From the NCBI GenBank assembly GCA_037440025.1, contig JBBIUX010000006.1, positions 11,296 to 75,295 of the forward strand: a stretch of DNA of 64,000 nt. Direction: 5' to 3'. Under the pieces are notes generated by a model, which did not search any database, had not been told where the DNA came from, and saw nothing but the letters and a program-made list of their open reading frames with translations. A program made the translations under genes and the position numbers. Shown here in pieces: positions 8,330-25,480 of this stretch (position 1 is its first letter; every line of letters starts with the position of its first letter). This stretch comes from Candidatus Fraserbacteria bacterium (GTDB lineage Bacteria; Bipolaricaulota; Bipolaricaulia; RBG-16-55-9; DRXL01).

Positions 8330-8547
8330 GCACCATCGTCGCTGACATCTGTCGGCTTAGCGTGATCGCGGTCACGGCGCCGCCCGTGAATATGATGGGC
8401 GCAACAGTGCGCGGCGCACAGAGATCATAGTACGCTGGGGACGGTTGTCCTTGGGATAGACATAGAGAAAGGGTAGACTCAGGCCAAAGAAGAAGAATGG
8501 AAAGAGGGCGCGACGGGTGACTACAGTGAGCAGAGCGAGAGCCCTGC

Positions 8548-8576
8548 TTGACATCGAGGCCCGATTATGCTAGGAT
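8548..8576 (+). promoter_or_regulatory. Putative sigma70-type promoter TTGACA-17-TAGGAT
   Basis: Consensus -35 with 17-nt spacer; a short 25-codon ORF (8610-8687) with GGGAGG SD follows. Confidence 0.45.
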
Positions 8577-8701
8577 ACTACCAAGTTTTTTGTAGAGGGA
8601 GGAAACGACGTGGAGAAGAACCGAGCTCGATGGGGCTCGGGCGGGAACAGGGGCGATCTTCCAACCTCGCTCCACGGTCATTCTTGAAGAGAGCGTTCGA
8701 T

Positions 8702-8731
8702 TTGACAAGAGGGGGGAGCGGGTGTTAGAAT
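8702..8731 (+). promoter_or_regulatory. Putative strong promoter TTGACA-17-(TGt)TAGAAT with extended -10, upstream of a ~215-nt leader
   Basis: TTGACA at 8702-8707, TGtTAGAAT at 8723-8731; GTG start of the large gene at 8951 with AGGAGG SD. Confidence 0.5.
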
Positions 8732-8950
8732 GTCGGCAAATTCACGCCTTGGGAGTGTATCTGGTGCTTTCACACAGAGAGACAGGACCAAGGGCGAGCG
8801 TTTTCGTGAGCGTATGCAGTATCTTCATCGGGAGGTGGTCGCAACTACGAAAGCACGGATCGTTTTGGTAGACGCTCGCATCGGCGCGGGCGTTGTTTGT
8901 TCTGAGCATGTTGGCCATATTTTAGACCCCAAATAGAAGGAGGTATACAA

Positions 8951-11900
8951 GTGAAGAAGAGCAGAGTACAGTTGGCGAGCCTGATCGCCGTGATCGCTTT
9001 TATTGTGGGCATCACGGCCATGGCTCCAGCAGCGCTGGCCAGTAAAGGCCAGGTTCTTCTCACGGATATTAACGGAACGCCCAAGCAATATTGGCGCGTG
9101 GGCGAGACACTCTTTATCACGGTGATCGACCCCGATGAGAACCGTGATTCAGATGAGGTCGAGTTCCTGAAGGGCAGTTTGACGACCCAGTTGGGGGACG
9201 AGGTCCCCGTGGTGCAGCTCTGTGCCGGACCGTGCCCGGAGTTCCCAGATTTGAAGGCCGGTGGGGCCATTGGGGACTTTGTGAGCAGTAGGGAAGGCGA
9301 AGACAAGTTGGTCTTGCAAGAGACCGGAGTCAATACCGGGGTCTTCCGTAGCCAAACCGGTATTCTCATCACCAAAGCGACGGTTGGCCAGCCGGTCACC
9401 TTAGGGGACCAGCTCCTGCAAGTCTTCGATACCGATACGCTCTTTGTGCGCTATCAAGACCCGACCAACCCCAACGATATCGGCATCAATCTGGGCAAGA
9501 TTTATACCGGCACCGCGCCGGGCACCCGAGCACGTGCTATCATCTCTATTACTGATGCTGGTGGGAACCCGGTCAGTCTGACGGACATCGGTCGCACGAT
9601 CTTCGTCACGGTCACTGACGCGGACGAGAACACCAGCCCCACCACCATCGAGACGGTCAAGGCCACGCTCTTCAACGCCCGCACCAAGCAGGCGATGGAG
9701 CTGACCCTGGTCGAGACCGGCCCTGACACGGGCGTCTTCAGAAATGTTGACGGCGTCATCTTAGTGGACTTCAAGAACAAGGGGCGGACGCTGGGCGCCA
9801 GTGAGCTTGATGCGCTCGATAAAGACACCATTCTTGCGTTCTATCAAGCGCCCGCCGGCGTCGTTCCGGTAATAACTCCGCCGACCGGGACACGCACCGA
9901 CGTCGGCGAGAGCGCGCTCATCCGATGTGAGCGCGTCGTCCCGGTGAAATTGGCCCCCGGTGCCGAGAGCGAGATCACCGTGCGCTGCACGGCCAAGCAA
10001 CAGCTGACCGCCATCATCATCAGCGATCGGCCCGATCCGGCCTTCACTGTCACCGGCGACACCCGCGGCGGCACGATCAGCCCGCTCGCCCCGGGACAGA
10101 AGTTCGAGCTCAAATACCGAGTGCGCGCCGGAGCCGCGCCGGGAACCTTCGCCATCACAGGCTCGGCGACCCCGGCAACAGCCGCAGGCGCCGATCCAGC
10201 CAATACCGTGACCTGGACCTCGAACATCGAAGTCGCAGCTTCCGGTGCGGCGAGCGCCTTTGGCTTCGCAGCCCTGAAGGTCACCACGGTAGATTCGAGC
10301 CTGGTGACCGTCACGCGCGACGTGCCCGATACCGTCGCAGCCAATAAGGAGTTCACCGTCAAGGTGAAAGTGACGGCGAAACAAGCGCTTCGCGCTCTGC
10401 TCGTCAACGACAACGTTGATGGCTGCACGCTCGTCGGGGGAACGGTCTCCCGCGCCGGAACTATTACCCCGCTCGAGCCGGGACAGTCGTTTGAGCATAG
10501 CTATAAGCTGACCTGCCCCGAGGGCACCATCACGATCACGGGCACGGTCACCCCGGTGACCGTAGCGGGCGCACAAGCCCCCGTTACTATTAGCTCGACC
10601 TTTACCGTCGGCGCGGTCCCCGTGGCGATGCTCGGCATGGGCGATATCAATGACCCCCATGACTTCGCGGTCGCCCAAGTGAAGGTCGCCCATCGCAACC
10701 CGGCGCGCATCTCGTTCATCGGCCCCACCGGGCAAGAGATCAGCGAGTTGCGCATCGGCGATGACGTCTTCGTCCAGGTCGAGGACCGCGACCAGAACGC
10801 CGACTCCGACAGGGTCGAGCGCGTCGTCGTCATGATCTTCGACATCAACGGCGGCCAGGAGCTGGAAGTCCTGACCGAGACGGGCGTCAACACCAGCGTC
10901 TTCCGCAACACCGGCCCGTTGAAGATCGTTCCCAAGGCTGTGGCTTCCTGCCCCGTCCCCGATGACCTGACGGTCTTCGGCCAGGGCCCGGAGGTCGTCT
11001 TCACGCCCACCGTGGACGCACAGAACGACGGGCAACTGGCAGTCGCCCGCGACGACGTCATCTACGCGACCTACTTCGACGACGATGTCGCAATGATCGA
11101 GAGCATTGACGAGATCAAGCGCGCTCTCGATGCCTTCGACGTCATCGCCATTACGGCTACGATCAAGCCTTCGGCCTTCGATCAGTTTGATAAGAAGATT
11201 CGATTCGTCAACGACGCCGGTCGGCCCATTGAAGAGTACAAGGTGGGCATGGACGTCTTCGTGCAGTTAGAGGACCCCATCTCCAACTTCCGCTCCGATC
11301 TGGTGGAGCAAATCCCGGTGATCGTGCTCGACCGCCACACGGGAGATCGTGAGTGCGTCACCCTGCAGGAGACCGGCCCCAACACGGGTCTGTTTATGAA
11401 CCAGCAGGGGTTGCCACTGCGCCGCGGCCTGCCCAGCGACATCAAGCTGGGCGACGGCATCCTGCAGATGCAGGATCGCGACAACATCGAAGCGCACTTC
11501 CAGGCCGCCGATAACCCCCAAGACTACGCGGCCACGTCCATCGGGATCATCCCGCTCTTTGAGCCGCCGACACCAGTGGCCAGGCCCACGGTCAAGTTCG
11601 ACCCGGCTTCCATCGAGATCGGCAAGCCCGTCTTCATCGAAGTAACGGACGCTGGTCGCAGTGGGACGCTCACGGATGCCGTGACGCTGACGCAGCTGCG
11701 CGGCGGCACGGTCGTCAAGACCTGGAAGGTCACCGTGAATCAGACGGCCCAGGCGGGCGTCTTCCGCAGCGAGTCTATCAGCACGGGTGAGCCCGGCAGC
11801 GGCGCCACCGTTGAAGCCCAAGACGGCGACACTCTCAGAGCCGAGTACGCCGGCGCCGATCCGGCCACGGCCACGCTCTTTATCGCCAAATTCGAAGTGC

Positions 11901-12154
11901 AGGCCTTCACCGTCTCGCCCAACCCCGCGACCACCCGGGCGACCTTCCGGGTTGAGGGCACCGGCATCGAGCGGACCGCCGTGAGCGTCTACGATCTGTC
12001 GGGGAAGCTCGTCTTCACCGGCAGCAGGGCCGGCGCGTCGCTGGAGTGGACCGTCTCTGACGTGGGCAACGGCGTCTACCTCTTCGTGATCACGGCGTCG
12101 GGCAAGGGACAGACCAAGGCGAGCAAGGTCATAAAGCTCGTGGTCTTGCGCTAG
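8951..12154 (+). CDS. Large secreted adhesin-like protein: signal peptide, 5-6 cadherin-like Ca-binding repeats (..D.D.N...ETG.NTGVFR..), two DUF11-like Ig repeats, T9SS type-A C-terminal sorting domain
   Basis: Repeats VIDPDENRDSD / VTDADENTSP / VEDRDQNADSD / LEDPISNFRSD each ending ETGxNTGVFR; C-terminus SPNPATTRATFRV...VSVYDLSGKLV...GVYLFVITASGKGQTKASKVIKL matches the Por_Secre_tail pattern. Confidence 0.7.
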   Translation: MKKSRVQLASLIAVIAFIVGITAMAPAALASKGQVLLTDINGTPKQYWRVGETLFITVIDPDENRDSDEVEFLKGSLTTQLGDEVPVVQLCAGPCPEFPDLKAGGAIGDFVSSREGEDKLVLQETGVNTGVFRSQTGILITKATVGQPVTLGDQLLQVFDTDTLFVRYQDPTNPNDIGINLGKIYTGTAPGTRARAIISITDAGGNPVSLTDIGRTIFVTVTDADENTSPTTIETVKATLFNARTKQAMELTLVETGPDTGVFRNVDGVILVDFKNKGRTLGASELDALDKDTILAFYQAPAGVVPVITPPTGTRTDVGESALIRCERVVPVKLAPGAESEITVRCTAKQQLTAIIISDRPDPAFTVTGDTRGGTISPLAPGQKFELKYRVRAGAAPGTFAITGSATPATAAGADPANTVTWTSNIEVAASGAASAFGFAALKVTTVDSSLVTVTRDVPDTVAANKEFTVKVKVTAKQALRALLVNDNVDGCTLVGGTVSRAGTITPLEPGQSFEHSYKLTCPEGTITITGTVTPVTVAGAQAPVTISSTFTVGAVPVAMLGMGDINDPHDFAVAQVKVAHRNPARISFIGPTGQEISELRIGDDVFVQVEDRDQNADSDRVERVVVMIFDINGGQELEVLTETGVNTSVFRNTGPLKIVPKAVASCPVPDDLTVFGQGPEVVFTPTVDAQNDGQLAVARDDVIYATYFDDDVAMIESIDEIKRALDAFDVIAITATIKPSAFDQFDKKIRFVNDAGRPIEEYKVGMDVFVQLEDPISNFRSDLVEQIPVIVLDRHTGDRECVTLQETGPNTGLFMNQQGLPLRRGLPSDIKLGDGILQMQDRDNIEAHFQAADNPQDYAATSIGIIPLFEPPTPVARPTVKFDPASIEIGKPVFIEVTDAGRSGTLTDAVTLTQLRGGTVVKTWKVTVNQTAQAGVFRSESISTGEPGSGATVEAQDGDTLRAEYAGADPATATLFIAKFEVQAFTVSPNPATTRATFRVEGTGIERTAVSVYDLSGKLVFTGSRAGASLEWTVSDVGNGVYLFVITASGKGQTKASKVIKLVVLR

Positions 12155-12167
12155 CGAACCCACAAAT

Positions 12168-12197
12168 GTAGGGGCACGGCGGCGCCGTGCCCCTACG
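12168..12197 (+). terminator. Perfect 14-bp-stem palindrome GTAGGGGCACGGCG/CGCCGTGCCCCTAC after the adhesin gene (no U-tract)
   Basis: Exact inverted repeat seen directly; 13 nt after the stop codon. Confidence 0.5.
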
Positions 12198-12248
12198 GTA
12201 CACCAATGGTGCAAGCAATACGCAATGTATAAGGAGGTTAAGGAAACG

Positions 12249-13199
12249 ATGAACCGAAGTTTGATTCTGGCGTTGGCGCTCGTCCTTCTGACCGGCCTGA
12301 CGGCTGTGGCCCAAGAGGGCGTGGGAGCCAACCCAGTCTTCAAGAACGGCGTAGACGCGCGCGCGCTCGCCATGGGCGGAGCCTTCGTCGGCGTCGCCGA
12401 CAGCTACTCTGCGTGTTATTGGAACGCCGCGGGCGTCGCTAAAGCCGCTGCCGATCAGTCCATTAAAGTCGGCGGCATGAACACGAACCTGTTTGGAGCC
12501 GGCATCAACTACAATCACGCCGGGGCCACCTTTACGCTCTTTGGGATGCCCTGGGGCTTGAGCGTCTCGTTGGTGTCCATCACCGACATCCCGCTCGGCG
12601 ACGGCAGCATGGGCAGCAACACCGAGCTGCTCGGCACGTTCTGCGGAGCCTTCCCGCTCCCGCTGAACGGGATGAACGTCTCCGTGGGCGGGGCCGGTAA
12701 ATACTACAGCCACACGCTCTTAGATGAGTCGGCCACGGGCATCGGCTTCGATGGCGGCCTGCTGATTGACGGGCTGATTCCGGGCCTGACCATCGGCGCG
12801 GCGGCCTATGACGTGGGCGGCACGAAGATGAATTGGACCACCGGCTCAGTCGGGGTAGTGGACCAGCTCTTCCGTGTCGGCTTTGGCTTTGCCGTCTCGC
12901 CGGACTTTGTGCTGGCGGCGGGCGTGGACCTGTATGCCGGCGGGGAGATGGCGATCCGTGCCGGTGCGGAGTTCAAGGGGATTGGCCCCTTGGCGGTGCG
13001 TGCCGGTGCAGTCCGTCCGGCGGACAGCGAGCAGTTCGCGCTCACCGTTGGCGCCGGGCTGATGCTAGGCACCCTGGGCGTGGACTTTGCGTGGCTGCAG
13101 AACAACATGATCGTCGGCGAGGGCGCCAGCGACACGATCGTGCTCTCGGCTTCGTTCAGCTTCGGCGGCGCTGAAGAGATGGCGCCTCCGTCGCAGTAA
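12249..13199 (+). CDS. Outer-membrane beta-barrel protein, FadL/PorV/PorP-like; likely T9SS-associated
   Basis: Signal peptide, then ARALAMGGAFVGVADSYSACYWNAAGVA (FadL-family N-terminal motif); alternating beta-strand pattern; sits between two CTD cargo genes. ATG at 12249 with AAGGAGG SD. Confidence 0.5.
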   Translation: MNRSLILALALVLLTGLTAVAQEGVGANPVFKNGVDARALAMGGAFVGVADSYSACYWNAAGVAKAAADQSIKVGGMNTNLFGAGINYNHAGATFTLFGMPWGLSVSLVSITDIPLGDGSMGSNTELLGTFCGAFPLPLNGMNVSVGGAGKYYSHTLLDESATGIGFDGGLLIDGLIPGLTIGAAAYDVGGTKMNWTTGSVGVVDQLFRVGFGFAVSPDFVLAAGVDLYAGGEMAIRAGAEFKGIGPLAVRAGAVRPADSEQFALTVGAGLMLGTLGVDFAWLQNNMIVGEGASDTIVLSASFSFGGAEEMAPPSQ

Positions 13200-13281
13200 G
13201 GGGTACGAGACCATGTTCCGAACGGCTATCTTCACATCATCGGATAAGCAACTCGACAACAAAGAGAGAAGGAGGTACGAA

Positions 13282-16200
13282 TTGAAGTTGAGCAAGGCTC
13301 CGAACTTGCGGACGGTTATTATCGCCGTATTGGCTTTTATACTGATCGGAACTGCGGCAGATGCCTTCGGCCGCGAGCTGCGCGTCACCACTGCGGCTGA
13401 CCTCGTTAGCTGTGCGGCGGGTGTAGCGTTGGCAGCCGGCCCTGATGCAGGCCAGGTCTCGGCTCCAGGAGATACCTGTGTGGTTCTCCCGGGAACTTAT
13501 ATAGTAGCTGCCAACATTCTTGTTACTCTACAGAACCTTACCATTCGTTCAGCTATCGGTGCCAATGCGACCATCGTCAACTTAGCTACATTTGCAGTGC
13601 GCATCCAGCGAGATGGTGTGACCATCGGCGGACCAAAGATCGATCAAGGTCTGACCTTCCTGAATGGCAACTTTGCCGGCGCTATCCAGATCGGGACGGG
13701 TGCGCCCGTCGGCCAGGCGGATGAGAATATCACCATTCAGCACAACATCATCCGGAACAATGCCGGACCGGGCATCACAACGGTAGTCCCGACCTCGGTG
13801 GAGCTGTTCAAGTTCTTCCTGAACACGATCCGAGACAATCTCGGACCGGGCATCGTCTTCTTGAACGCCGGGTCGGTGGGCCGTCGTGGCCAGGACCGCA
13901 ACGTGGTCATCGAGCAGAACTACTTCGAGAACAACTTCGGTCCGAATATTATCTTCGGCAACGGCGGCAGCGTCGAACAGACAGCCATCCTGAACAACAC
14001 GATCAACCGAGCGTTCCTCGGCAGCGGCATCCAGTTCAGCAATACCGGCGAGGTGCGCGATTCGCTGATCGTGAAGAACCTTGTTCAGTTCAATACCTTC
14101 TTCGGGATGCTGTTCGTCAACACCGGCCGCGTGGATAACGTCCTGATCAAGGACAACACCGGCCCGACGCTCGATCAAGGGATCACCCGCAACATGGCCG
14201 GCGGCATTTACTTCATACTGCCCGTCACCGAGTTGCGTGACGTCACCATCGAGGGCAACAACATCAACTCGAACCAGAACTTCGCGGTTCCCTTCATCCT
14301 GGGCAACGGTATCTTCACGTTCGTCCCTGGAGACATCGAGGGGCTGGCCCTCACGGGGAACAACATTCGCCAGAACTGCAGCAACGGCGTCCTGAAGCTG
14401 CTCGGTGGCGACTTGGTGCGCTCAAGCTTCGACTCCAATAAGGTGTTCAACAACGGGTTTGGCATCGTCGCCGGCTGTCCCGTCTTCGGACCGAGCGCCG
14501 GCTTCATTGCCATCAACACGAATAATAACATCCAGGACAACAAGTTCTCCGGCAACGAGTTCCGCGAGAACAGTCTGACGGGTGCAACGCTGTTCACCAC
14601 GACCGGTGACATCAGCCGCCTGAGCTGGACCAACGATAAGTTCATCAAGAACACGGTCCGCGGCCTGTCGCTCTTCGTAGCGGCGACCGGCGACATCGCC
14701 GATCTCAGCACCAGCGGCATCGAGGTGTTAGAGAACCAGGCTGGTCCGGGCACGGGCGCAGACATCCGCACCTTGACCGGTGACATGGAGTCGTTCAACG
14801 TTGATAACAGCAAGTTCAACAACAACGGTGGCTTCGGCCTGCGCATCATCTCGCTTGGTGCGCCGCCGGCCCGCGGGGATATTGACTCAATCAAGATCAG
14901 CAACTCGCAGTTCAACTTCAACGGCACGCGCGCCCCGGTCGGTTTGGGAAGCGGCGTCCTGTTGGCTGCAGAGTCCATCCGCACCGTTGACGTGAGCAAG
15001 TCCGTGGGCACGAACAACAACGATCACGGCTTCAGCGCCGCATCCAGCCGCGATCTGGCGCTGTTCACGTTCACTGACGATGAGTTCTCCAACAACGACC
15101 GGAATGTCGATACTATCGGCAACGGCATTGACATCAGTGTCAACGAAGCGGCGAGCGAGATCACCGTGACTGGCAGCAAAGTCAACAGCAATAACAGCGG
15201 TATCAAGATCACGGCGCAAGATCGAATCGGGCGCAACTATGTGATCGAGAACAACCCAGAGATCAACAGTAACCGCGACGCGGGTATTGACTTATTCAGC
15301 GGGCGCGACCTGGATAGCGTGCGCATGGCCAACAACAGCTTGGCGCGCAACGCCATCGGCGTCCGGCTCGATGCCCACGATCGCGGTAGCCGTATCGAAC
15401 TCAACAAGAACAGAATCCTAGGGAACGACGGCGTGGGCGTCGGCGTGTTGCTCAATACCTCCGGCACGACCATCACTGAGAACAGCATCCGCAACAACGC
15501 CACGGGTATCGAAGCGCGCAAGGTGCGTGACAATAAGATCACCAAGAACAACATCGCGCGCAACGAGAACTTCGGCGTGGATGCCAACGCGCTCTCGCCG
15601 GGCGAGTCCATTGATGCCAAGGAGAACTGGTGGGGTGAGCCTTCTGGTCCAAAGCACGCCACCAACCCCGGCGGCATCGGCGACCGCGTCACCGACAAAG
15701 TGACGTTCGTGCCGTTCCTGACCGAGCCGGCCTTCCCCACGGAAGCCGTCTTCCAGATCGAGAACCTTGAACCGCTGACCTTTGATGTCACCGTGGGTGA
15801 CAGCGTGACCTTCAGGTATAGGATCAAGAACAACGGCACCGAAGAGGACACGCAGACCGTGACGATCACGATCAAGGACGGCCTGGGCAACGTCGTCCTG
15901 CAGACGAGCAAGCAGGTCACGGTCAACCCCGCGGGCTTCAGAGAAGATCAGTTCAGCTTCATCTTCCAGACGCCCGGCGAGTACACGGTGACCGTGGAGA
16001 CGCCCGACGACAGCAAGAGAGCCCAGGGAACCGTCGCCGGTGGAGCCGCGTGCTTGCCGTTCGCCTTGGACACCAACAAGAACAAGGTGCTCGACGACGC
16101 GGAGATCATCACCGCGATAGACCTGTGGGTCAAGAACGGCGATGTCCCCGGCTGCAGCCCACCACTGAAGATCAGCGACACCCAGATCATCCAGCTGATC

Positions 16201-16911
16201 GACCTGTGGGTCAAGGGCAGCCAGCTGACCGTGCCGTTGGGCGGCAAGTTCACCCCGGCCTCGGTCGTCAACCCGACGACCGCCAAGGTCGCGACCCTGG
16301 CCGCGAGCGTCCGCACCGTCCGCCCCGGTGAGTCCTTCACCGTGACGGTGCAGCTCGACGCCAAGGACGGCATCAACGGGCTGCTGATCGCCCAGAGCCT
16401 GCCCACCGGTTGGAGCGTCACGCCCGCTCAGCTCAATGGCGCGTACTACAAAGCTTCTGAGAACAAGTGGCTCTGGCTCAACGCCAAGGGCACGGTCATG
16501 CTCAGCTATACCGTGACCGTTCCGGCCAGCGCCGGGCCCGGCGTCTACACCATTGCCGGGCGGGTGAAGGCCGCGGTGCCCAGCGTGGAAGCGGAGCTGC
16601 AGCCCCTGACCGTCGAAGTGCTCGGTGCGCCGGTCGCTCTGGCGGTGAAGTCCATCACGCTCAGCCAAGCGCCGGTGCGCAACTCTGGGGCGTACTTCGT
16701 GGTCGAGGGCGTGGGGATCGCGCAAACGACGGTCCACGTCTTCAACTTGAGCGGCAAGCTGGTCTTCAACCAGAGTGCTCAGGGCAACGTCGTGCCGTTC
16801 TCGGCAGCGAGCGAGTTGGCCAACGGCGTCTATCTATACATCGTGACGGTCAAGGGTGCGGACGGGCAGACCGTGACGAGCAAGATCCAGAAGCTCGTCG
16901 TGCTCCGATAA
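13282..16911 (+). CDS. Secreted right-handed parallel beta-helix (NosD/pectate-lyase-like) repeat protein with an internal EF-hand/dockerin-like module and T9SS type-A CTD
   Basis: Dozens of ~22-aa N/G-rich beta-helix rungs; NWWGEPSGP motif; DTNKNKVLDDAE EF-hand loop; C-terminus ...VHVFNLSGKLV...GVYLYIVTVKGADGQTVTSKIQKLVVLR. Probable TTG start at 13282 with AGGAGG SD (ORF track start 13213). Confidence 0.7.
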   Translation: MKLSKAPNLRTVIIAVLAFILIGTAADAFGRELRVTTAADLVSCAAGVALAAGPDAGQVSAPGDTCVVLPGTYIVAANILVTLQNLTIRSAIGANATIVNLATFAVRIQRDGVTIGGPKIDQGLTFLNGNFAGAIQIGTGAPVGQADENITIQHNIIRNNAGPGITTVVPTSVELFKFFLNTIRDNLGPGIVFLNAGSVGRRGQDRNVVIEQNYFENNFGPNIIFGNGGSVEQTAILNNTINRAFLGSGIQFSNTGEVRDSLIVKNLVQFNTFFGMLFVNTGRVDNVLIKDNTGPTLDQGITRNMAGGIYFILPVTELRDVTIEGNNINSNQNFAVPFILGNGIFTFVPGDIEGLALTGNNIRQNCSNGVLKLLGGDLVRSSFDSNKVFNNGFGIVAGCPVFGPSAGFIAINTNNNIQDNKFSGNEFRENSLTGATLFTTTGDISRLSWTNDKFIKNTVRGLSLFVAATGDIADLSTSGIEVLENQAGPGTGADIRTLTGDMESFNVDNSKFNNNGGFGLRIISLGAPPARGDIDSIKISNSQFNFNGTRAPVGLGSGVLLAAESIRTVDVSKSVGTNNNDHGFSAASSRDLALFTFTDDEFSNNDRNVDTIGNGIDISVNEAASEITVTGSKVNSNNSGIKITAQDRIGRNYVIENNPEINSNRDAGIDLFSGRDLDSVRMANNSLARNAIGVRLDAHDRGSRIELNKNRILGNDGVGVGVLLNTSGTTITENSIRNNATGIEARKVRDNKITKNNIARNENFGVDANALSPGESIDAKENWWGEPSGPKHATNPGGIGDRVTDKVTFVPFLTEPAFPTEAVFQIENLEPLTFDVTVGDSVTFRYRIKNNGTEEDTQTVTITIKDGLGNVVLQTSKQVTVNPAGFREDQFSFIFQTPGEYTVTVETPDDSKRAQGTVAGGAACLPFALDTNKNKVLDDAEIITAIDLWVKNGDVPGCSPPLKISDTQIIQLIDLWVKGSQLTVPLGGKFTPASVVNPTTAKVATLAASVRTVRPGESFTVTVQLDAKDGINGLLIAQSLPTGWSVTPAQLNGAYYKASENKWLWLNAKGTVMLSYTVTVPASAGPGVYTIAGRVKAAVPSVEAELQPLTVEVLGAPVALAVKSITLSQAPVRNSGAYFVVEGVGIAQTTVHVFNLSGKLVFNQSAQGNVVPFSAASELANGVYLYIVTVKGADGQTVTSKIQKLVVLR

Positions 16912-17008
16912 AGCGAGTGGATCTCCTCGGAGGGGCGAAGCAAGACGATGCTTTGCCCCTCCAGGGGAATTACACACTATGGAAATGGAACAGGAGGTTT
17001 AGCAAGAG

Positions 17009-17800
17009 ATGAAGTTCCTTAAGAATCCGCTTGGCTTGTTTGCTTTAGCGGCCTTAGCTGTCGCCGGGATCGCGTTCCTGGTGTGGGCTGCTGGGGCGAA
17101 CGTTAACTGCGTCGGCGGTGTGTGCTATAGCACCAACGGAAGAGCTACCAATGCTGGTGGCACGAATGACGCTAACGTGACTACTGGCGTCTTCACCGGA
17201 GAGAACGACACCGCCTCCATCGAGTGCCGCGTGGTCGGCGACGATGGCGGCGATAATACCTTCAGTGCTGGCGGAGGCAGCGATACCCTCTATTTGGGGC
17301 CTCGCAAGGATGATGGTACTCAAGCAGCTATCACTGTCGAAGGCGAAGACGGCGACGACGTGATCGTTGATGGATGCAGCAGCAATAATACATTGAACGG
17401 TGGCAACGGAAACGACGTCATCATCGAAGATGCCCAAGGTACACTCGACGGCGGCGATGGCAACGACCTGTTGGCCGGCGGCCAGGACAATGACACTCTC
17501 ACCGGCGGCAATGGGAACGATGTGCTCAATCCCGGACCTGGAGATGACACCATAAACTCTTCTTCTGCAGACGGCGACGACATCGTGATCATCCACGCTG
17601 GTGATACACCTGCAGGGGCGACTAGTGACGACTACACCTGTTACGGCCACGACACCATCCTGAAGTTCGGCTACGGAAGGGATGGGGTTGTCGTGCTAAC
17701 TGCAGGACAAAAGACAGAAGAGACTGATCCGCAGACGGGCGGGACGTATACTATCACGGCTGGTGCCAACAGCACCTGCACCATCATCTACGTGGAGTAA
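17009..17800 (+). CDS. Small secreted/anchored RTX-repeat (hemolysin-type Ca-binding GGxGxD) protein, paralogue 1
   Basis: N-terminal hydrophobic segment; GGNGNDVII / [27 protein letters not shown] nonapeptide repeats; conserved C-terminus ...CTIIYVE. Confidence 0.6.
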
Positions 17801-17880
17801 GGGCTGGCGAGAGGACCCTCGGTCACCCGAGGGTCCCTCAGCCAATTAGATATTATTAGGAAAAGGAGGCCAAGCGAGAG

Positions 17881-18786
17881 ATGAAGCTCTTCAAGCTTGT
17901 GCGCAATCATTTCGCTCTGTTCTTTCTAGCGGCCTTGGCGGTCTCCGGCGTGGCCTACCTGGTGTGGGCCGTCGGAGCCAACGTCAATTGTATCGCCGGC
18001 ACGTGCTCCAGCACCAACGGCAACCAAGATACCACTTCTCCCTATGACAGCACCACCGTCTTCACAGGGGAGAACGACACGGCATCTATTGAGGCAGTGG
18101 GGAGTGGAACCAGTTGTACTAACAATATATTCCAACTGGGTGGAGGCACTGATGTTGCCTACATCCTTGACCCCCAGACTGCTTCTAAGGAGCCCATCCA
18201 GGTCCAGGGTGAAAGTGGCGATGACGTGATCCTCGATGGCTCAACGGCGAACAACTGTCTCTTGGGCAATGACGGCAACGACTTCATCGCCGAGGATGCC
18301 GTGGGCATACTCGTCGGCGGCAATGGGAACGACCTGCTCGCTGGCGGCCGGGATAATGACGTTTTGGGAGATACTGATCTTAACGGTACTTGCGCCGCTA
18401 ACGAGAGTGATCCCAACAACGATGTCTTCACCGGTGGGCCAGGCAATGATACCTACTGCACCGCCGATAACGATGGCGATGACATCGTGATCATCCACGC
18501 TGGCGATGTGCCTGCTAACAACAACGAGGATTACACCTGCGAAGGGAACGACACGATCCTGTTGTTTGGGTTCAATTTGGATCTGGTGCAAACCAAGCTT
18601 CCCACGGAGACAACGGGAAACTTCTACAACCTGACGGCTGCTCCGGCTGGCTTAGCTGGGAACCAAGTAGCCGTGGGCGATCCGGTGAACAACCCGACAG
18701 GCTCCAATACAGGAGCACGGTATACCTTCACGGCTAACAATACTGGTGCTGCTACTGGCACCTGCAACATCATCGCGGTCGAGTAA
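17881..18786 (+). CDS. RTX-repeat protein, paralogue 2
   Basis: Same architecture and many identical segments ([28 protein letters not shown]-terminal CNIIAVE). Confidence 0.6.
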   Translation: MKLFKLVRNHFALFFLAALAVSGVAYLVWAVGANVNCIAGTCSSTNGNQDTTSPYDSTTVFTGENDTASIEAVGSGTSCTNNIFQLGGGTDVAYILDPQTASKEPIQVQGESGDDVILDGSTANNCLLGNDGNDFIAEDAVGILVGGNGNDLLAGGRDNDVLGDTDLNGTCAANESDPNNDVFTGGPGNDTYCTADNDGDDIVIIHAGDVPANNNEDYTCEGNDTILLFGFNLDLVQTKLPTETTGNFYNLTAAPAGLAGNQVAVGDPVNNPTGSNTGARYTFTANNTGAATGTCNIIAVE

Positions 18787-18851
18787 GGGCTGGCTATAAA
18801 GAGCGCAGTGGGGAAGCCCTCGGAGCGCACGCTTCGGGGGCTTTTGGTTTT

Positions 18852-18920
18852 GAATCACGGAAGGCACGGAATCGCCACGGAGAGCACAGAAGAATGGTTC
18901 TCTCTGTGCCCTCCGTGATG
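18852..18920. repeat. CACGGAAG-type long hairpin repeat (family C)
   Basis: GAATCACGGAAGGCACGGAATCGCCACGG...CTGTGCCCTCCGTGATG imperfect inverted repeat; same family at 23487, 24298, 25286, 25923, 31209, 31616, 32321, 33231. Confidence 0.75.
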
Positions 18921-18984
18921 CAGAGCTTGCACGGGAAAGGGGGAGTAGGTAGGATAGCAAAGTGATTCTCTGGAGGCATTATAT

Positions 18985-19404
18985 ATGAAATGGCGTCCGG
19001 TCTATCTTGTTGGTATCGGAATCGTCGTGATCGCAGTGATCGGCGGCGGGCTCTGGTGGTGGCAAACGAGTTCCAATACCCTTGCCCCTACCCCACGCTA
19101 TCGCCCTGCCGTGCAAACCCCCCTCAGGACCGATGACCCCAACATCCGCGCAACTCTCGTCGTCTTGCAGTTGGGCAGCAACGAGGGCTTGCTGCGCGTC
19201 GTGCGCCACTACCTGCAACAGAACCCCCAAGCCGACTTCTATCACTTCATCGCCCCAGAGGGGACTATGCTGGCCCTGCGCACGGCAACTTTCTCCGACC
19301 CGGCAAAGCTCCCCCAACGGTTGCGCCAGCGCCTCGCCGCATGGCCCAAGATAACGCGCGCGGGGCGAGAAGGACTATACACCATCTACCATCTGGAGAA
19401 GTAG
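18985..19404 (+). CDS. Hypothetical membrane-anchored protein
   Basis: N-terminal TM helix (VYLVGIGIVVIAVIGGGLWWW); preceded by TAGGATAGC -10-like motif. Confidence 0.4.
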   Translation: MKWRPVYLVGIGIVVIAVIGGGLWWWQTSSNTLAPTPRYRPAVQTPLRTDDPNIRATLVVLQLGSNEGLLRVVRHYLQQNPQADFYHFIAPEGTMLALRTATFSDPAKLPQRLRQRLAAWPKITRAGREGLYTIYHLEK

Positions 19405-19489
19405 CGAGTGAGCCGGACGCGCGTTTGACAACGACTCATCCTTTTTTCTAAACTTAACTTGTTCACACTAAGAAGAGGGAGGAAAGCCC

Positions 19490-21100
19490 ATGCGGCAGAA
19501 GAAACTCTGGCTCCTGGCAGGACTGCTCCTTGCATTCCAGGCTCTAGGTTCCGCAACTATTGAACAGGCGCTCGATCAGAACAAGAACGGCTTCTTGGAT
19601 GACTTAGAGATGCTCCAGGCACTCACTCTCTGGGTACGGCAAACCCCCGTGCCCGGAACAGAGGGCGTGATCATCAGCGATACCCAGATCTTGCAACTGC
19701 TTCAGATGTGGATCAAACAGACACCGATCCCAGGGGAACAGCCACCTCCTCCCCCGCCACCGCCTACAGCCGCCACAGCCTGCCCTGACGCCCCCGCCGG
19801 CGCGCGGGTCTTGACCGTACCCGCTCAGTTTCCCACGATCCAACAAGCCATTCAGAACGCCCGCGACGGCGATAAGGTTTTGGTCAAGCCGGGCACTTAC
19901 AGCGGAGGCATTGTGATCAATAAAGGGATCATCTTCGAAAGCCAGGAGGGCAAGAGCCTCACCAACATTGCCAGCACCGGCGACCAGAAGGGGATCGTCG
20001 TCCTACGGACCGTCGGCGCGGTGATCCGGGGCTTTGGCATCAGCGGGGGAAGATCCGGCATCAGTATCGAAGCCTCCAGTCGAGTCTGTGTCGAACAGAA
20101 TGAAATCTTCAGCAACGTTGGCTCTGGCATTGAGATCGCGGGCAAGCTGACCGAATTGGGCCGCGAAGCCCAGGACATCACCATCGTCAACAACGCCATT
20201 CGCAACAACGTGGGCTATGGCGTCATCGCGACGGAATTCCTGCGCGGGAAGATCCTCGGTAATCAGATCATGGACACGGCAGCTAACCCCGACGGAAGCG
20301 CTGGTTACGGGATCGCGGTCATCGGCGGGAGTCGCGTCGAAATCCGCAAGAATAAAATCTTCCGGTCGCGCTCCCATGGTCTCTTCACCAGCGAGATCAC
20401 CGATCTGCAAATCGCGGAGAACGAGATAAGAATCTCCCCGACAGCACCGGGGGCGACACCGGCAGCGGGGATGGTCGTCGGTCACGGCGCAATTGGAGCG
20501 TTGGTTACAAATAACGCTGTCAGTGAGAGCGAGATCGGCATTCTCATCGAGGAGGTGCGCAGTATCACGCTGCGCGATAATACTATCAGTCGGAGCCGGG
20601 TCGCGGGGGTGCGGGTCAATAGGTCGCTCTTGGTCCGCCTAGAGGGAGATCGCATCACGGAGACACAGCCTCCTCCCATGAGCCCTGAGCGCCCCGCCAT
20701 CGGCGTAGAAGCGCTCAACGACTCCACGGTAAGCTTGACGGGAGTGATCATCCAACGGAGCTTCAGCTATGGCTTGCTGGTGTTGAGCAGGGCGGAAGTC
20801 GAGGTCATGCAGAGCGTGATAGAGCAGACAGCCGGACGACCCGGAGTGTTGGGACGAGGAGTGGGCGTCCAGGGCGCGCTCCTAAAGATGAGAGATAGCA
20901 CCATCGCTCAAAACGCTGACGATGGAGTTGCCGTGCTGGCCAACGGACGGGCGGAACTTTCGGGCAATACAATCAGTGATCATAGCAATTTCGGCATCTT
21001 TGCTGATCCCACTGGCGCCGTACAGTGCCCTGTCGCAAATGTCTTTATCAATAATGAACAGAACCGCTCCGTCAATGTGCCGACAGCTTGCGAAAGCTGA
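19490..21100 (+). CDS. Secreted parallel beta-helix protein with N-terminal EF-hand/dockerin-like module and poly-Pro linker
   Basis: Signal peptide; DQNKNGFLDDLE EF-hand loop + LWV/ISDTQILQL helices; PPPPPPPP; NosD-like beta-helix rungs. Confidence 0.6.
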   Translation: MRQKKLWLLAGLLLAFQALGSATIEQALDQNKNGFLDDLEMLQALTLWVRQTPVPGTEGVIISDTQILQLLQMWIKQTPIPGEQPPPPPPPPTAATACPDAPAGARVLTVPAQFPTIQQAIQNARDGDKVLVKPGTYSGGIVINKGIIFESQEGKSLTNIASTGDQKGIVVLRTVGAVIRGFGISGGRSGISIEASSRVCVEQNEIFSNVGSGIEIAGKLTELGREAQDITIVNNAIRNNVGYGVIATEFLRGKILGNQIMDTAANPDGSAGYGIAVIGGSRVEIRKNKIFRSRSHGLFTSEITDLQIAENEIRISPTAPGATPAAGMVVGHGAIGALVTNNAVSESEIGILIEEVRSITLRDNTISRSRVAGVRVNRSLLVRLEGDRITETQPPPMSPERPAIGVEALNDSTVSLTGVIIQRSFSYGLLVLSRAEVEVMQSVIEQTAGRPGVLGRGVGVQGALLKMRDSTIAQNADDGVAVLANGRAELSGNTISDHSNFGIFADPTGAVQCPVANVFINNEQNRSVNVPTACES

Positions 21101-21138
21101 GAACAAGAGATAACTATACAAAGAGGGGGGCAGACTCT

Positions 21139-23355
21139 ATGCGAGTGATAATTGTTGTTGGGGTGTTGCTAGTGGTCGGAATAGTTGCTGAGGCACAGAC
21201 GCTACGAGTGACCGTGCCGGTGGATCTTGTCAATTGTGTATCGGGAGTGCCGCTGGTCGCGGGCCCGGACGCGGGGAGCGCTGTGGGTCCCGGCGGCGCT
21301 TGCGTTGTCGCTTCGGGCACTTACCCTGTAGCAGTTACCATTACCGTGCCCGGATTGATTCTGATTTCCACAAACGGCGCCATGGCCACGACGATCGCTG
21401 GCCCAGTCACTATAACTGCTGCGGCCAACGGTGTCACCCTTGGTCGAGCAGGCCAAGGATTTATGATCACCGGGGGCCTGACCGTAGGCGCTAATCAGAA
21501 CATTACTGTTGAGGACAGCATCTTCACAGGAAGTGGAGGGCCGGGAGTGTTGGTCGGTGCTCCAGGGGCTGTCCGTAATCTACGTTTTTTGAATCTTCAA
21601 GTACGCGCTAACGGAGGCGGGGGGATCATCTTCACGGGAGGATCTGTCGACGATCTGCTCATCACCGGGAGCGTGATCGAGACCAACGGAGGCCCGGGTA
21701 TAGGTTTCGCTATTGGCGGAAGCGTTCGCAGCTTCAACCTCTCTAGCAACCGCATCATTGGCAATGCGATCGGAGGGATCATCTTCGTTGGCCCCACCAA
21801 CGATGTTGAAGATAGCGAATTTTCTAATCTTATTGTACAAGGCAATGCCGGTCCGGGATTGGCTCTTGCTAACACCGGGCGCGTCATGGGGGTGGTGGTC
21901 TCTGGCAGTAACATCTCCAGTAACACCGGCGACAACGTCGTCTTTGGGAACGGCTTGACCTCAGATGTGGTGTTCGAGAACAACACTATAGAAAACGCCG
22001 CCGCCAACGGCGTAAACTTTTCCAATACTGGTGCGGTGGAAGACTTTGTCTTCCGGAACAACACCATCCAACGCAACGGCTTTAACGGCGTCTTGTTCTT
22101 CAACACCGGCAGGGTAGATAGCATTCAGATCCTTGACAACCGTCTGCGCAATAACGGTTTCCATAATCTTTTTATTAATCATCTGGGGCCTCGTGATTTC
22201 TCGGTCGGGCGGTTGACGATGGAGGGCGGCTTCGTCGACCAAGCGGGCGACAACGGCATCCGTATTGTGACTCTGACCACCGACATTGTCTTCATCACCT
22301 TGACCAATGTTCAAATCAGCAAGAACGGGGGGATAGGGGTCTGCTTACGCACAAACGGGGGAGCTATCGCTGACATCAAGTTTGAAGGAGCAGTTATCAA
22401 AGAAAACCAAGGGGGAGCAGGCTTAACTCCCTGTGATACAGCAGCTGCGCCGATCGGCTCTGGAGCGGAATTGATCACGCTGACGGGGAACATCGGTCCG
22501 GCAGAAGTTACTGGAAGCACCTTTGCCAATAATGGCGGCTTCGGCCTGCGCTTGCAATCGTTGGGGGCCGGTGGCGCGATGGGCGACGTGGGGCCGGTGG
22601 CTGTGCGAAACAGCGCATTCGATCAGAACGGCACGCGGGCCCCGGCGGGCTTGGGCTCTGGGTTCACCGCTCGAGGCCGAGGCGTCCGCGACATCTCCAT
22701 CAACCCCACCACAGCTAATAATAACAACGATCACGGCGTAGATATTCAAGCGACCAGTGATATTAGCAATGTCTCCATTACTGGAGGCGAGTTCTCCAAT
22801 AATGACCGCAACGTAGACACGATTGGCGCGGGGATCAACATCAGCGCCACGCAACGCCTGAGCGGTGTGAAAGTGACAGGAGCCAAGCTGATGTCGAATT
22901 CCCAGGGGGCGCGTGTTCAGGCCGACCGAGCTTCGGATAATCACATCAACCAGTGCGAGATCTCTGGCAATAGACAAGCTGGAGTTGAGGCCTCGATCAC
23001 GTCGGGAGACGATGTGGATGCAACGAACAACTACTGGGGCAGCCCTTCCGGCCCCAGCGGGACCAACGGCGCTGTGGGGCAGGTCACGGCCAGTCCGTTC
23101 TTGAGCGCCCCGCCGGGCGGTCCCACGCCGCCTACACCACCGACGCCACCCACACCGCCAACTCCACCGACCCCGCCGACGCCACCGGCGGGAGGCTTTG
23201 CCGCCTGCGCCGCAGGCGCAGATAACAGAATTGACGATCTAGAAATGCTGGGCATTCTCGATGCATGGATCAAGGGGCAGAGCTATCAAGCCTGCGGGGT
23301 GCCCACGGATTTGGACGTCTTGCAGGCGTTGGATCGCTGGGCGCGGGGAGTGTAG
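21139..23355 (+). CDS. Secreted parallel beta-helix protein, paralogue of the 13282 gene, with (PTPPT)n linker and C-terminal dockerin-like module
   Basis: Long stretches collinear with the 13282 product (NNNDHG..EFSNNDRNVDTIG.GI.IS, NYWGSPSGP); PTPPTPPTPPTPPTPPTPP; ATG at 21139 with GAGGGGGG SD. Confidence 0.7.
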   Translation: MRVIIVVGVLLVVGIVAEAQTLRVTVPVDLVNCVSGVPLVAGPDAGSAVGPGGACVVASGTYPVAVTITVPGLILISTNGAMATTIAGPVTITAAANGVTLGRAGQGFMITGGLTVGANQNITVEDSIFTGSGGPGVLVGAPGAVRNLRFLNLQVRANGGGGIIFTGGSVDDLLITGSVIETNGGPGIGFAIGGSVRSFNLSSNRIIGNAIGGIIFVGPTNDVEDSEFSNLIVQGNAGPGLALANTGRVMGVVVSGSNISSNTGDNVVFGNGLTSDVVFENNTIENAAANGVNFSNTGAVEDFVFRNNTIQRNGFNGVLFFNTGRVDSIQILDNRLRNNGFHNLFINHLGPRDFSVGRLTMEGGFVDQAGDNGIRIVTLTTDIVFITLTNVQISKNGGIGVCLRTNGGAIADIKFEGAVIKENQGGAGLTPCDTAAAPIGSGAELITLTGNIGPAEVTGSTFANNGGFGLRLQSLGAGGAMGDVGPVAVRNSAFDQNGTRAPAGLGSGFTARGRGVRDISINPTTANNNNDHGVDIQATSDISNVSITGGEFSNNDRNVDTIGAGINISATQRLSGVKVTGAKLMSNSQGARVQADRASDNHINQCEISGNRQAGVEASITSGDDVDATNNYWGSPSGPSGTNGAVGQVTASPFLSAPPGGPTPPTPPTPPTPPTPPTPPTPPAGGFAACAAGADNRIDDLEMLGILDAWIKGQSYQACGVPTDLDVLQALDRWARGV

Positions 23356-23483
23356 GCCCTCACCCCGCCCTGCGGGCACCCCGAGACGTTTTGGTGCAGC
23401 ATCTTTCCGAGAAAGCGGTCGCACCAAAACGTCTCGCCCTCTCCCGTAGTTGACCTACGGGAGAGGGGTTGGGGGTGAGGGCC
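23355..23483. repeat. Nested palindromic repeat, family B (GGCCCTCACCCC....GGGGGTGAGGGCC with inner GAGACGTTTTGGTGCAG/TCGCACCAAAACGTCTC)
   Basis: Outer and inner inverted repeats read directly; related copies at 33163, 62278 and in-frame in recG. Confidence 0.75.
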
Positions 23484-23486
23484 TCT

Positions 23487-23573
23487 GAATCACGGAAGGC
23501 GCGGAATCGCCACGGAGAGCACGGAAGATTTTTTCTGTGTCTTCCGTGGCCCGTTCGGTGTCCTCCGTGATTC
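23487..23573. repeat. Family C CACGGAAG hairpin repeat, copy with promoter tail
   Basis: ~135 bp near-identical to 31209-31338. Confidence 0.8.
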
Positions 23574-23578
23574 AAAGT

Positions 23579-23607
23579 TTGACCTGCAGAAGTGCCCAGG
23601 CTATACT
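23579..23607 (+). promoter_or_regulatory. Near-consensus sigma70 promoter TTGACC-17-TATACT embedded in the repeat tail
   Basis: TTGACC 23579-84, TATACT 23602-07, 17-nt spacer; ATG of next ORF at 23634. Confidence 0.6.
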
Positions 23608-23633
23608 GAAAGGGCTGAGGCGAGGTGTGAGCT

Positions 23634-23954
23634 ATGTCTGTCACGAAGTCGCAGCCAAAGCCCCAGGACGTAGAGAAATGGGGCGTCTATGCCAAGGCAA
23701 GTCGGCTCTTCGCGGAAAGGGTCAAAAACCTCCCCGGCGTCCGAGCCGTAGCAGCCAAATATTGCGGGGATTACGTGGATTTGTGGGTCTTCACCGACGA
23801 AGTCCACCAGAGCGAGTTGATCCACCCTGTGGGAGCGGCCCTCAAACAGCTCGGAGAGCAATTTCCTGAACTCCTCTTTGACTCGTTCGTAACACGTCAA
23901 GGGATCCCAGACGGCTTTGTAGCCTTCTTCCATGCCAACGCCCCAGGAGCATGA
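23634..23954 (+). CDS. Hypothetical protein, possibly nucleotidyltransferase-like
   Basis: 106 aa; GDYVDLWVF resembles a degenerate NT-fold motif; 23-nt overlap with next ORF. Confidence 0.3.
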   Translation: MSVTKSQPKPQDVEKWGVYAKASRLFAERVKNLPGVRAVAAKYCGDYVDLWVFTDEVHQSELIHPVGAALKQLGEQFPELLFDSFVTRQGIPDGFVAFFHANAPGA

Positions 23955-24285: not shown

Positions 24286-24297
24286 CGTTTGAAAGTA

Positions 24298-24393
24298 GAA
24301 TCACGGAAGGCGCGGAAATCGCCACGGGGGACACGGAAACGGCAGGTGTTTTCTGTGCCTTCCGTGGCTCTTTCTTCTGTGGGCTCCGTGGTT
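24298..24393. repeat. Family C hairpin repeat
   Basis: GAATCACGGAAGGCGCGGAAATCGCCACGG...GGCTCCGTGGTTC. Confidence 0.75.
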
Positions 24394-24486
24394 CAGAAGC
24401 GTTAGGGGATAGGTGAGGGGTGGCAAAGCGAACCTTCATCGGGTATAACTGAAATACCATGACCGCTATGCTTTTAGGAGAACTTA

Positions 24487-25103: not shown

Positions 25104-25126
25104 CGCAAGCAAAAGCTGGCATCGAA

Positions 25127-25349: not shown

Positions 25350-25367
25350 TTAACGACACAGACGACT

Positions 25368-25478: not shown

Positions 25479-25480
25479 AC

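Follow-up and report, generated by a model that had tools for sequence, protein, structure and literature searches.

An S-layer-type protein gene beside a PorV-like barrel gene in a candidate envelope operon of Bipolaricaulota

Introduction

The surface-layer (S-layer) proteins TfsA and TfsB of Tannerella forsythia reportedly use a type IX secretion system (T9SS) C-terminal domain (CTD) both for export and for surface attachment. They are said to belong to a Bacteroidota host with a full T9SS, to be CTD-cleaved and glycolipid-linked, and to lack an adjoining gene for a cognate barrel. Two other T9SS proteins, PorU and PorZ, keep their CTDs uncleaved and are held on PorV and PorQ, respectively, while a PorP/SprF barrel has been proposed to anchor uncleaved type-B cargo at the surface (PMC10202324). 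Reviews place both T9SS genes and proteins with a CTD exclusively in Bacteroidota and related phyla of the Fibrobacterota-Chlorobiota-Bacteroidota (FCB) group (PMC11285876, PMC10202324). Among archaea, the S-layer protein of Nitrosopumilus maritimus (NmSLP) forms a hexagonal, acidic lattice that is sensitive to EGTA (PMC11153153). Here we describe a locus that resembles each of these systems in part. It lies in a 64 kb stretch of contig JBBIUX010000006.1 (the window, by which we mean the whole stretch analysed, about 50 open reading frames (ORFs) of which were scanned) from a Candidatus Fraserbacteria bacterium, and it includes genes for a 1067-aa surface protein with a CTD and for a PorV-like outer-membrane barrel.

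The host belongs to Bipolaricaulota, outside Bacteroidota and the FCB superphylum. Bipolaricaulota are diderm Terrabacteria placed next to Thermotogae (bioRxiv 10.1101/2021.05.31.446380). The first cultured strain of the phylum has a toga-like extension of the outer membrane under a hexagonal S-layer, whose protein was not named (bioRxiv 10.1101/2025.11.21.689855). The closed Ran1 genome of the phylum is without lipopolysaccharide (LPS) genes (PMC6092417), and attachment through anionic LPS (A-LPS) is therefore disfavoured.

We propose, and give the proposal about an even chance, that the unit at 8.5-18.8 kb of the window is a strongly expressed envelope operon of Bipolaricaulota, in which an S-layer-type protein would be anchored through a retained CTD to a cognate PorV-like barrel and co-expressed with other CTD cargo. 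The kinds of component are already known (S-layer immunoglobulin (Ig) domain, type-A CTD, PorV-family barrel). We found no description of a conserved two-gene cassette made of these parts, nor of such a cassette in a toga-bearing Terrabacterial phylum outside FCB.

Results

The 1067-aa protein and its repeats

The first gene of the locus and the parts of its product are as follows.

8951-12154, + strand: S-layer-type surface protein, 1067 aa, GTG start, assigned from motifs, AlphaFold2 (AF2) model, Foldseek and profiles
aa 1-30, + strand: signal peptide
aa 33-185 (R1), 196-300 (R2), 583-712 (R3), 747-868 (R4) and 879-978 (R5, degenerate): NmSLP-type Ig repeats
aa 313-432 (M1) and 441-556 (M2): further Ig-like domains
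aa 984-1067 (nt 11900-12151): CTD

The motif ETG.[ND]T[GS].F occurs four times (aa 124, 255, 643 and 807), with a degenerate fifth copy of the ETGxNTGxF type near aa 930. A preliminary description of this DNA had counted at least five repeats of about 75 aa; four clear copies and the degenerate one are indeed present, but the unit measures 105-153 aa. The calcium site D.D.N..SD, assigned there to every repeat, is found in its strict form (D..[EQ]N..SD) in R1 and R3, whereas R4 reads DPISNFRSD and R2 reads DADENTSPT, in which the final S and D deviate.

In a Pfam scan of the protein only the CTD was matched, with no model for the repeats, and phmmer comparison of the entire protein with PDB sequences returned no match. 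Profiles were more informative. One built from 30 repeats, four of them from the window, has a single significant match in PDB, NmSLP (8C8K, 'Cell surface protein'; E=9.9e-35), which it matches over six or more stretches with the same motifs. Another, built from the Bipolaricaulota-type full-length family alone, also places 8C8K first in PDB (E=2.7e-7), followed by the CTDs of PorU and PorZ. AF2 models an all-beta chain of about nine beta-sandwich domains (mean predicted local distance difference test score (pLDDT) 75, predicted TM-score (pTM) 0.53), and the top Foldseek match of this model in PDB is again NmSLP (8c8m, E=3.5e-21). The protein has a pI of 4.7. Judged from these comparisons, the ETGxNTGVF repeats are Ig-like domains homologous to the Nitrosopumilus S-layer protein, a link for which no earlier description was found.

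The label 'cadherin-like', previously given to this protein, fails, since Pfam (E<=0.01) and the 50 best Foldseek matches in PDB contain no cadherin and the repeats appear homologous to archaeal S-layer Ig-like domains instead. A relationship to alpha-2-macroglobulin/complement was also rejected: Pfam bMG10 is sub-threshold and the Foldseek matches are generic beta-sandwich strings (TM about 0.1).

A HMMER scan with residues 36-330 as the query, run over 1.84 billion cluster representatives (E<=0.001), gave 404 repeat relatives, which include giants of up to 7799 aa. By an iterated profile, giant repeat proteins contain as many as 46 copies of a domain some 136 aa long, with the consensus ...VTDADQNTD...TLTLTETGANTGVF...GDGVLEV..GDTITATYTD, and the repeats of six giant-type proteins scanned matched no Pfam family. 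The C-terminal signals of proteins with this domain vary: some have T9SS-like tails ending ...V[IV][RK], others IPTL-CTERM or other hydrophobic-plus-basic tails of PEP-CTERM type, and others none. The ETGxNTGVF domain therefore looks like a general building block of surface proteins. It has no Pfam match and connects hundreds of giant surface proteins of bacteria with an archaeal S-layer protein whose structure is solved.

Orthologues of the 1067-aa protein form more than 115 clusters (78-91% identity), mostly metagenomic, one of which is labelled Candidatus Bipolaricaulota. Across these the sequence is highly conserved and the size fixed at about 1050-1080 aa. Such constancy is not what typical, variable adhesins show and argues against an alternative that we regard as unlikely, namely that the protein is a calcium-dependent adhesin, cadherin-like or fibrillar, that would form no lattice and would bind minerals or cells while still being tethered by its CTD and the barrel. 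Its acidic D-x-D-x-N motifs, the giant multi-repeat surface proteins dominated by the same repeat family and the colonisation of serpentine minerals by strain J31 would all suit an adhesin of this kind; the expression signals described below fit a major structural protein, neither Pfam nor Foldseek gave a cadherin match, and an S-layer protein is the one homologue with a solved structure.

C-terminal domains of three proteins

Two further proteins of the window carry a CTD.

13213-16911, + strand: right-handed beta-helix protein with CTD, 1232 aa (PF13229, NosD, TIGR04183)
16651-16908, + strand: CTD of the 1232-aa protein
28949-31147, + strand: S8 subtilase with the third CTD, 732 aa (PF00082, E=1.8e-29)
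30890-31144, + strand: CTD of the S8 subtilase

The 1067-aa, 1232-aa and S8 proteins, in which a type-A sorting tail had been noticed, do share one: all three end in ...NGVYL[FY]...K[VI].KLVVLR, the last 85 or so residues are 41-46% identical pairwise, and no further ORF of the window has that KLVVLR-type tail. The expectation that such tails would be recognised by Por_Secre_tail or related CTD models holds for two of them. TIGR04183 (cut-off 23 bits) gives 38.8 bits for the 1067-aa and 28.9 for the 1232-aa protein, both of which combine a Sec signal with a type-A CTD above the cut-off, as T9SS cargo does; the S8 tail stays below it (16.5 bits), and PF18962 exceeds its cut-off for the 1067-aa protein only. 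The wider picture of surface or envelope proteins with type-A-like CTDs and signal peptides, and of components rich in calcium motifs, is borne out by the sequences.

Among 12 CTDs from Bipolaricaulota, 11 match TIGR04183 and one matches TIGR04131. A profile of these 12 finds in PDB the CTDs of PorU (E=6e-8) and PorZ (E=2e-4), then FlgD (E=6e-4) and the CTD of RemA (E=0.14). The CTDs of the locus thus seem to resemble the retained PorU/PorZ type, while RemA, a cleaved-cargo CTD, is a weaker match. A CTD profile search of the sequence collection returned mostly short fragments and is unfit for counting cargo per genome.

As a statement of system membership, the name 'T9SS cargo locus' used in the preliminary description does not stand: the host lies outside FCB, T9SS is known from FCB only (PMC11285876), and no core gene (SprA/Sov, PorK/L/M/N or GldK/L/M/N, PorT, PorU, PorZ) is present among the roughly 50 scanned ORFs of the window. 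Literature searches yielded no report of T9SS in Bipolaricaulota/Acetothermia, and nothing relevant on PorV-like proteins outside Bacteroidota or on Por_Secre_tail. A canonical T9SS, with SprA/Sov, PorK/L/M/N, PorT, PorU and PorZ, might be encoded elsewhere in the genome; the barrel would then be a PorV paralogue that carries cargo from translocon to sortase, and the CTDs would be cleaved. Several features would agree with this, including the scores above the TIGR04183 cut-off, the PorV-like barrel, the NCBI label 'T9SS type A sorting domain-containing' on Bipolaricaulota proteins, and the sharing of the CTD by several different enzymes, as in T9SS organisms (one related locus, L006, has nine CTD ORFs in 20 kb). 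We nevertheless find it doubtful. Besides the window without a core gene and the silence of the literature on T9SS in this phylum, the reviews place T9SS genes in FCB phyla only (PMC11285876; PMC10202324), the Ran1 genome without LPS genes would leave no substrate for A-LPS attachment, and the CTDs resemble the retained type.

The PorV-like barrel

Between the genes of the 1067-aa and 1232-aa proteins lies the barrel gene.

12225-13199, + strand: PorV/PorQ-family outer-membrane beta-barrel (predicted) with N-terminal plug, 324 aa, from NCBIfam, AF2, Foldseek and PDB profile

Both its position between two cargo genes and its nature, PorV-like rather than plain FadL, agree with what had been suggested earlier. 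The AF2 model is a closed beta-barrel with a short helical N-terminal plug (pLDDT 85.7), the plug motif being ARALAMGGAF...YWNAAG. A Pfam scan of the barrel gave no match. The NCBIfam model NF033709 (PorV/PorQ family) matches with E=7.6e-16 and 58.6 bits, below its cut-off of 90, and the equivalog models score lower still (NF033710 PorV 20.3 bits, cut-off 250; NF033711 PorQ 24.8 bits, cut-off 220). In Foldseek, FadL ranks first by E-value (E=5e-10, TMq 0.64) and PorV (6h3i_F, E=1.6e-9, TMq 0.69) has the best TM-score of all matches. When a profile of the 30-member barrel family was compared with all PDB chains, the sole significant match was PorV of Flavobacterium johnsoniae (E=2.5e-10), with an alignment that spans the plug motif DARA.G.G...WNPA and the last C-terminal strands; FadL, TodX and OmpG did not appear at E<=1. 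On these grounds the barrel is a divergent, sub-threshold member of the PorV/PorQ family, of the 14-stranded type.

A conserved hatch had been put forward as an argument against a T9SS-type role. This fails, since PorV carries the same N-terminal plug motif and the hatch does not discriminate between FadL and PorV. With respect to FadL, the fold is similar and the family consensus is YWNPAG, but the window barrel reads NAA, and at E<=1 neither FadL nor TodX is among the matches of the family profile. That the barrel is an ordinary FadL-type channel for hydrophobic substrates, alkanes or fatty acids for example, next to surface-protein genes by coincidence, is very improbable: the E-value rank of FadL structures in Foldseek, the precomputed PF03687 (UPF0164) match of some barrel relatives, the NPA-like motif retained in the family consensus and hydrocarbon use in the phylum are outweighed by a family profile that matches PorV and neither FadL nor TodX, by PorV/PorQ models as best NCBIfam matches, by the TM-score, by the NAA in place of NPA, and by the 54 of 75 CTD ORFs in 80 loci that directly abut a barrel gene.

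Conservation and spread of the cassette

In another genome of Bipolaricaulota, the metagenome-assembled genome (MAG) GCA_025060395.1, the same flanking genes, from ArgRS and FtsY to transketolase, are followed by adhesin, barrel and beta-helix genes. Barrel relatives are likewise labelled Candidatus Bipolaricaulota, and the closest loci in a scan of GTDB representatives carry Bipolaricaulota/Acetothermia labels, with two labelled 'uncultured Thermotogae'. Identity to the orthologues is 72-84% for adhesin and barrel and about 50% for the beta-helix cargo. In the two relatives L002 and L008 an orthologue of the 1232-aa protein follows the barrel. The order of a large CTD protein followed by the barrel is kept even where barrels are only 36-45% identical (L003, L006/L007, L010-L012, L015).

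In L006/L007, PKD and S8 genes lie immediately upstream of the adhesin homologue, and five CTD genes come after the barrel. This region (L006/L007 1-20900; JGI 3300038770; GCA_973788475.1) contains nine CTD ORFs in 20 kb around the same barrel, in the order beta-helix, a 324-aa protein, PKD, S8, adhesin homologue, barrel and five consecutive CTD genes.

A CTD profile was made from the three tails of the window and iterated on the ORFs of all fetched loci. Among 80 barrel-family loci from genome representatives, a CTD ORF ends just upstream of the barrel in 40 and starts just downstream of it in 14; 47 loci have a directly adjoining CTD ORF and 33 have neither. In the 1.25 Mb covered, 54 of the 75 CTD ORFs adjoin the barrel gene. 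The 80 loci span Bipolaricaulota, Poribacteria, Eisenbacteria, Zixibacteria, Ignavibacteria, Bacteroidota, Gemmatimonadota and KSB1, and some of them come from MAGs labelled Bacillota, Binatia or Spirochaetota. The cassette of cargo and cognate barrel is thus widespread in and outside FCB phyla. The genomic association in 47 of 80 loci suggests that the barrel may bind the CTD.

The cassette was also seen in MAGs labelled Bacillota, Clostridia, Pseudomonadota, Binatia, Spirochaetota, Firestonebacteria and Endomicrobiales (L038, L041, L052, L054, L069, L078, L081, L084), which reflects either errors of binning or labelling or a spread much wider than FCB. Poribacteria (18 loci, L013-L080) show the reverse of the order found in Bipolaricaulota and FCB, with the adjoining CTD gene downstream of the barrel in 7 of 18 loci and upstream in none.

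Expression signals

The following signals precede or close the operon.

8548-8576, + strand: promoter-like site P1, TTGACA-17-TAGGAT with TG
8702-8731, + strand: promoter-like site P2, TTGACA-18-TG-TAGAAT, 11/12 match to consensus
8732-8950, + strand: conserved leader, about 220 nt, in which hairpins are predicted (e.g. 8871-8894)
8937-8943, + strand: Shine-Dalgarno sequence AAGGAGG before the GTG start
18812-18845, + strand: intrinsic-terminator-like hairpin, 15 bp stem and T run, closing the five-gene unit
19425-19454, + strand: promoter-like site before the 536-aa gene

The strong promoter noted earlier is well founded: P2 agrees with the consensus at 11 of 12 positions and is kept as TTGACA...TG.TACAAT in both L002 and L008, which also keep the -35 hexamer and most of the -10 of P1. 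In the region scanned there are 13 promoter-like sites, where shuffles give an expectation of 4.7. The Shine-Dalgarno sequence is a strong one, and both it and the GTG start are conserved in two species whose proteins are 72-80% identical. The strong terminator-like hairpin after the fifth gene and the promoter-like site before the 536-aa gene make the first five genes look like one transcription unit. The first three genes (8951-16911) have the highest codon adaptation index (CAI) among the window genes tested, 0.74-0.77 against S2 and EF-Ts, and a GC content at third codon positions (GC3) of 0.80-0.81, compared with 0.63-0.77 in the other genes tested; the 1067-aa gene itself has a CAI of 0.77 and a GC3 of 0.80. 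From these sequence signals the operon appears strongly expressed.

The entire 400-nt region upstream (8520-8950) is strongly conserved over three species, and its hairpins, such as 8621-8640 and 8871-8894, show changes of the G-C to A-U type. The consensus fold of the leader has 42 predicted pairs, one of which is changed on both sides, so that covariation is thin with the four sequences compared. An Rfam scan of the whole window gave no match, which places the conserved leader outside known RNA families.

Other genes of the locus and its surroundings

Together with the three genes above, five more make up the eight ORFs of 8951-23355, all on the + strand and all verified, and every product of this interval has a signal-peptide-like N-terminus.

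17009-17800, + strand: RTX-repeat protein with N-terminal hydrophobic signal or anchor, 263 aa (PF00353)
17881-18786, + strand: paralogue of the RTX-repeat protein, 301 aa (49% identity to the 263-aa protein)
18985-19404, + strand: doubtful gene, 139-aa ORF, transmembrane helix at the N-terminus, without a family match
19490-21100, + strand: NosD-like beta-helix protein without CTD, 536 aa (Pfam, module sharing)
21088-23355, + strand: beta-helix paralogue of the 1232-aa protein without CTD, 755 aa (Pfam, identity)
16042-16236, + strand: EF-hand/dockerin-like module of the 1232-aa protein (aa 944-1008)
19547-19732, + strand: EF-hand/dockerin-like module of the 536-aa protein (aa 20-81, N-terminal)
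23230-23349, + strand: EF-hand/dockerin-like module of the 755-aa protein (aa 715-754)
27456-28952, + strand: protein of three PKD domains plus SGL/NHL-like beta-propeller, 498 aa (Pfam), its gene kept near the system in relatives

The beta-helix proteins match PF13229 with E=1e-21 to 6.5e-30. The 1232-aa protein (PF13229 E=1.4e-21, NosD E=1.4e-10) consists of a beta-helix, an Ig-like domain, the EF-hand/dockerin-like module, a second Ig-like domain and the CTD. The 755-aa protein is 34% identical to its N-terminal 650 aa and ends in a Pro/Thr linker and a C-terminal module of the same kind; this identity and the PF13229 matches confirm that these are beta-helix paralogues, as proposed. Orthologues of the 755-aa protein in L002 and L008 are 49% identical, while both relatives lack a counterpart of the 536-aa NosD-like gene at this position. 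The module of about 60 aa common to the three beta-helix proteins (D.NKN..LDD.E...A..LW...ISD.QI.QL...W.K) resembles a duplicated EF-hand/dockerin-like pair. An identity with dockerin was rejected, as no dockerin model matched and EF-hand_7 reached E=0.004 and 17.8 bits (cut-off 30) in one of the three copies.

The two RTX-like proteins had been taken for tandem paralogues. They are 49% identical, and PF00353 (cut-off 23) accepts the 263-aa protein (44.5 bits) but fails in the 301-aa one (17.6 bits). Both bear an N-terminal hydrophobic signal or anchor and in this differ from classical substrates of the type I secretion system. The gene is doubled in the window and single-copy in L002 and L008.

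Housekeeping genes (ArgRS, FtsY, TatD, transaldolase, transketolase, RecG, S2, EF-Ts, DnaB) flank the locus, which is therefore chromosomal. Between the beta-helix genes on one side and the PKD and S8 genes on the other lies an island of small ORFs (23400-27450); it looks like an insertion, because in L002 and L008 the PKD gene lies within about 0.5 kb. It holds a BrnT-like/CopG-type antitoxin pair (24487-25103; the BrnT-like Pfam match is sub-threshold) and a Uma2-family gene (26882-27445). The latter is one of four paralogous Uma2-family (putative restriction endonuclease-like) genes that bracket the PKD and S8 genes within 8 kb, the others being at 31725-32312, 33320-33940 and 33937-34509.

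Discussion

In the envelope operon that we propose, all products would be exported by Sec, their signal peptides being readable in the sequences, and would then cross the outer (toga) membrane. On the model of PorU-PorV and PorZ-PorQ, and of type-B cargo with PorP/SprF, the uncleaved CTD would dock on the cognate PorV-like barrel, providing an anchor independent of LPS. The acidic Ig-like domains with their D-x-D/E-x-N motifs would build a surface array, probably stabilised by Ca2+ as their homology suggests, and the beta-helix and S8 cargo would be displayed likewise through the same CTD. More speculatively, the two beta-helix proteins without a CTD may attach by the common EF-hand/dockerin-like module.

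Classical S-layer proteins seldom contain as many cysteines as the eight of the 1067-aa protein, and this is one of several points that weigh against such an operon. The ETGxNTGVF repeat also occurs in giant proteins (up to 7799 aa, up to 46 copies) that have the look of surface fibrils, which means that the domain is not confined to S-layers. The AF2 model of the 1067-aa protein is only moderately confident (pLDDT 75, pTM 0.53), and the TM-scores of whole-chain Foldseek matches are low (0.16). The barrel stays under the curated NCBIfam cut-off (58.6 against 90 bits), and the CAI reference set consists of two genes (S2, EF-Ts). The hexagonal spacing of strain J31 is reported as 6.25 nm, which seems small for a subunit of 110 kDa. 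Lattice formation by the 1067-aa protein is a prediction from homology, backed indirectly by the expression signals and by the S-layer of a cultured member of the phylum, and binding between CTD and barrel, retention of the CTD and the step of outer-membrane translocation are all inferred.

If the proposed operon is correctly read, the locus is a concrete candidate for the surface layer of the Bipolaricaulota toga and for its hold on an apparently LPS-less outer membrane. Since the cassette recurs in half of the 80 barrel-family loci and over many phyla, anchoring of a CTD on a barrel may be a general module independent of the Bacteroidota machine, which would bear on the evolution of cargo handling in T9SS. 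A more far-reaching reading, which we advance tentatively and think improbable, is that Bipolaricaulota and the other non-FCB lineages with the cassette are without T9SS, and that a CTD with its adjoining PorV-like barrel constitutes a self-contained two-partner system for export, anchoring or both, serving the principal surface-layer protein together with accessory enzymes on a toga membrane free of LPS. Were this true, the module of CTD-PorV recognition would be older and more widespread than T9SS, which would later have recruited it.

Among known systems, the hydrophobic-compound channels FadL and TodX resemble the barrel in being of the 14-strand type and in their N-terminal plug, and the fold E-values are near 1e-9; they differ in giving no sequence-profile match, and the genomic company of the barrel is CTD proteins and not lipid metabolism. 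NmSLP (Nmar_1547; PDB 8C8K/8C8M; PMC11153153) and the 1067-aa protein are both acidic chains of Ig domains with the motifs V.V.D.D.N.D, L.ETG.NTG.F and GD.I...Y.D. NmSLP, however, is an archaeal, glycosylated protein of 1734 aa and ten domains, without CTD and without an outer membrane, whereas the 1067-aa protein is bacterial and has two unrelated Ig-like domains in mid-chain, a T9SS-type CTD and a partner barrel; the lattice is an observation for the former and a prediction for the latter. Type-B cargo with PorP/SprF (SprB-SprF, PG1035-PorP) shares with the locus the clustering of cargo genes with a dedicated barrel gene. In contrast to those systems, the CTD here is type-A-like and the barrel matches PorV/PorQ models, no PorP/SprF family having been returned. 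With PorZ-PorQ and PorU-PorV of Porphyromonas gingivalis, the locus would share a retained type-A CTD on a barrel of the PorV family (PMC10202324). Those pairs are part of a Bacteroidota machine of about 20 proteins and their genes do not lie in cargo-barrel cassettes, whereas the barrel described here is shorter (324 against 402 aa), scores below the family cut-off and is found, beside the gene of its putative cargo, in a phylum without a known T9SS.

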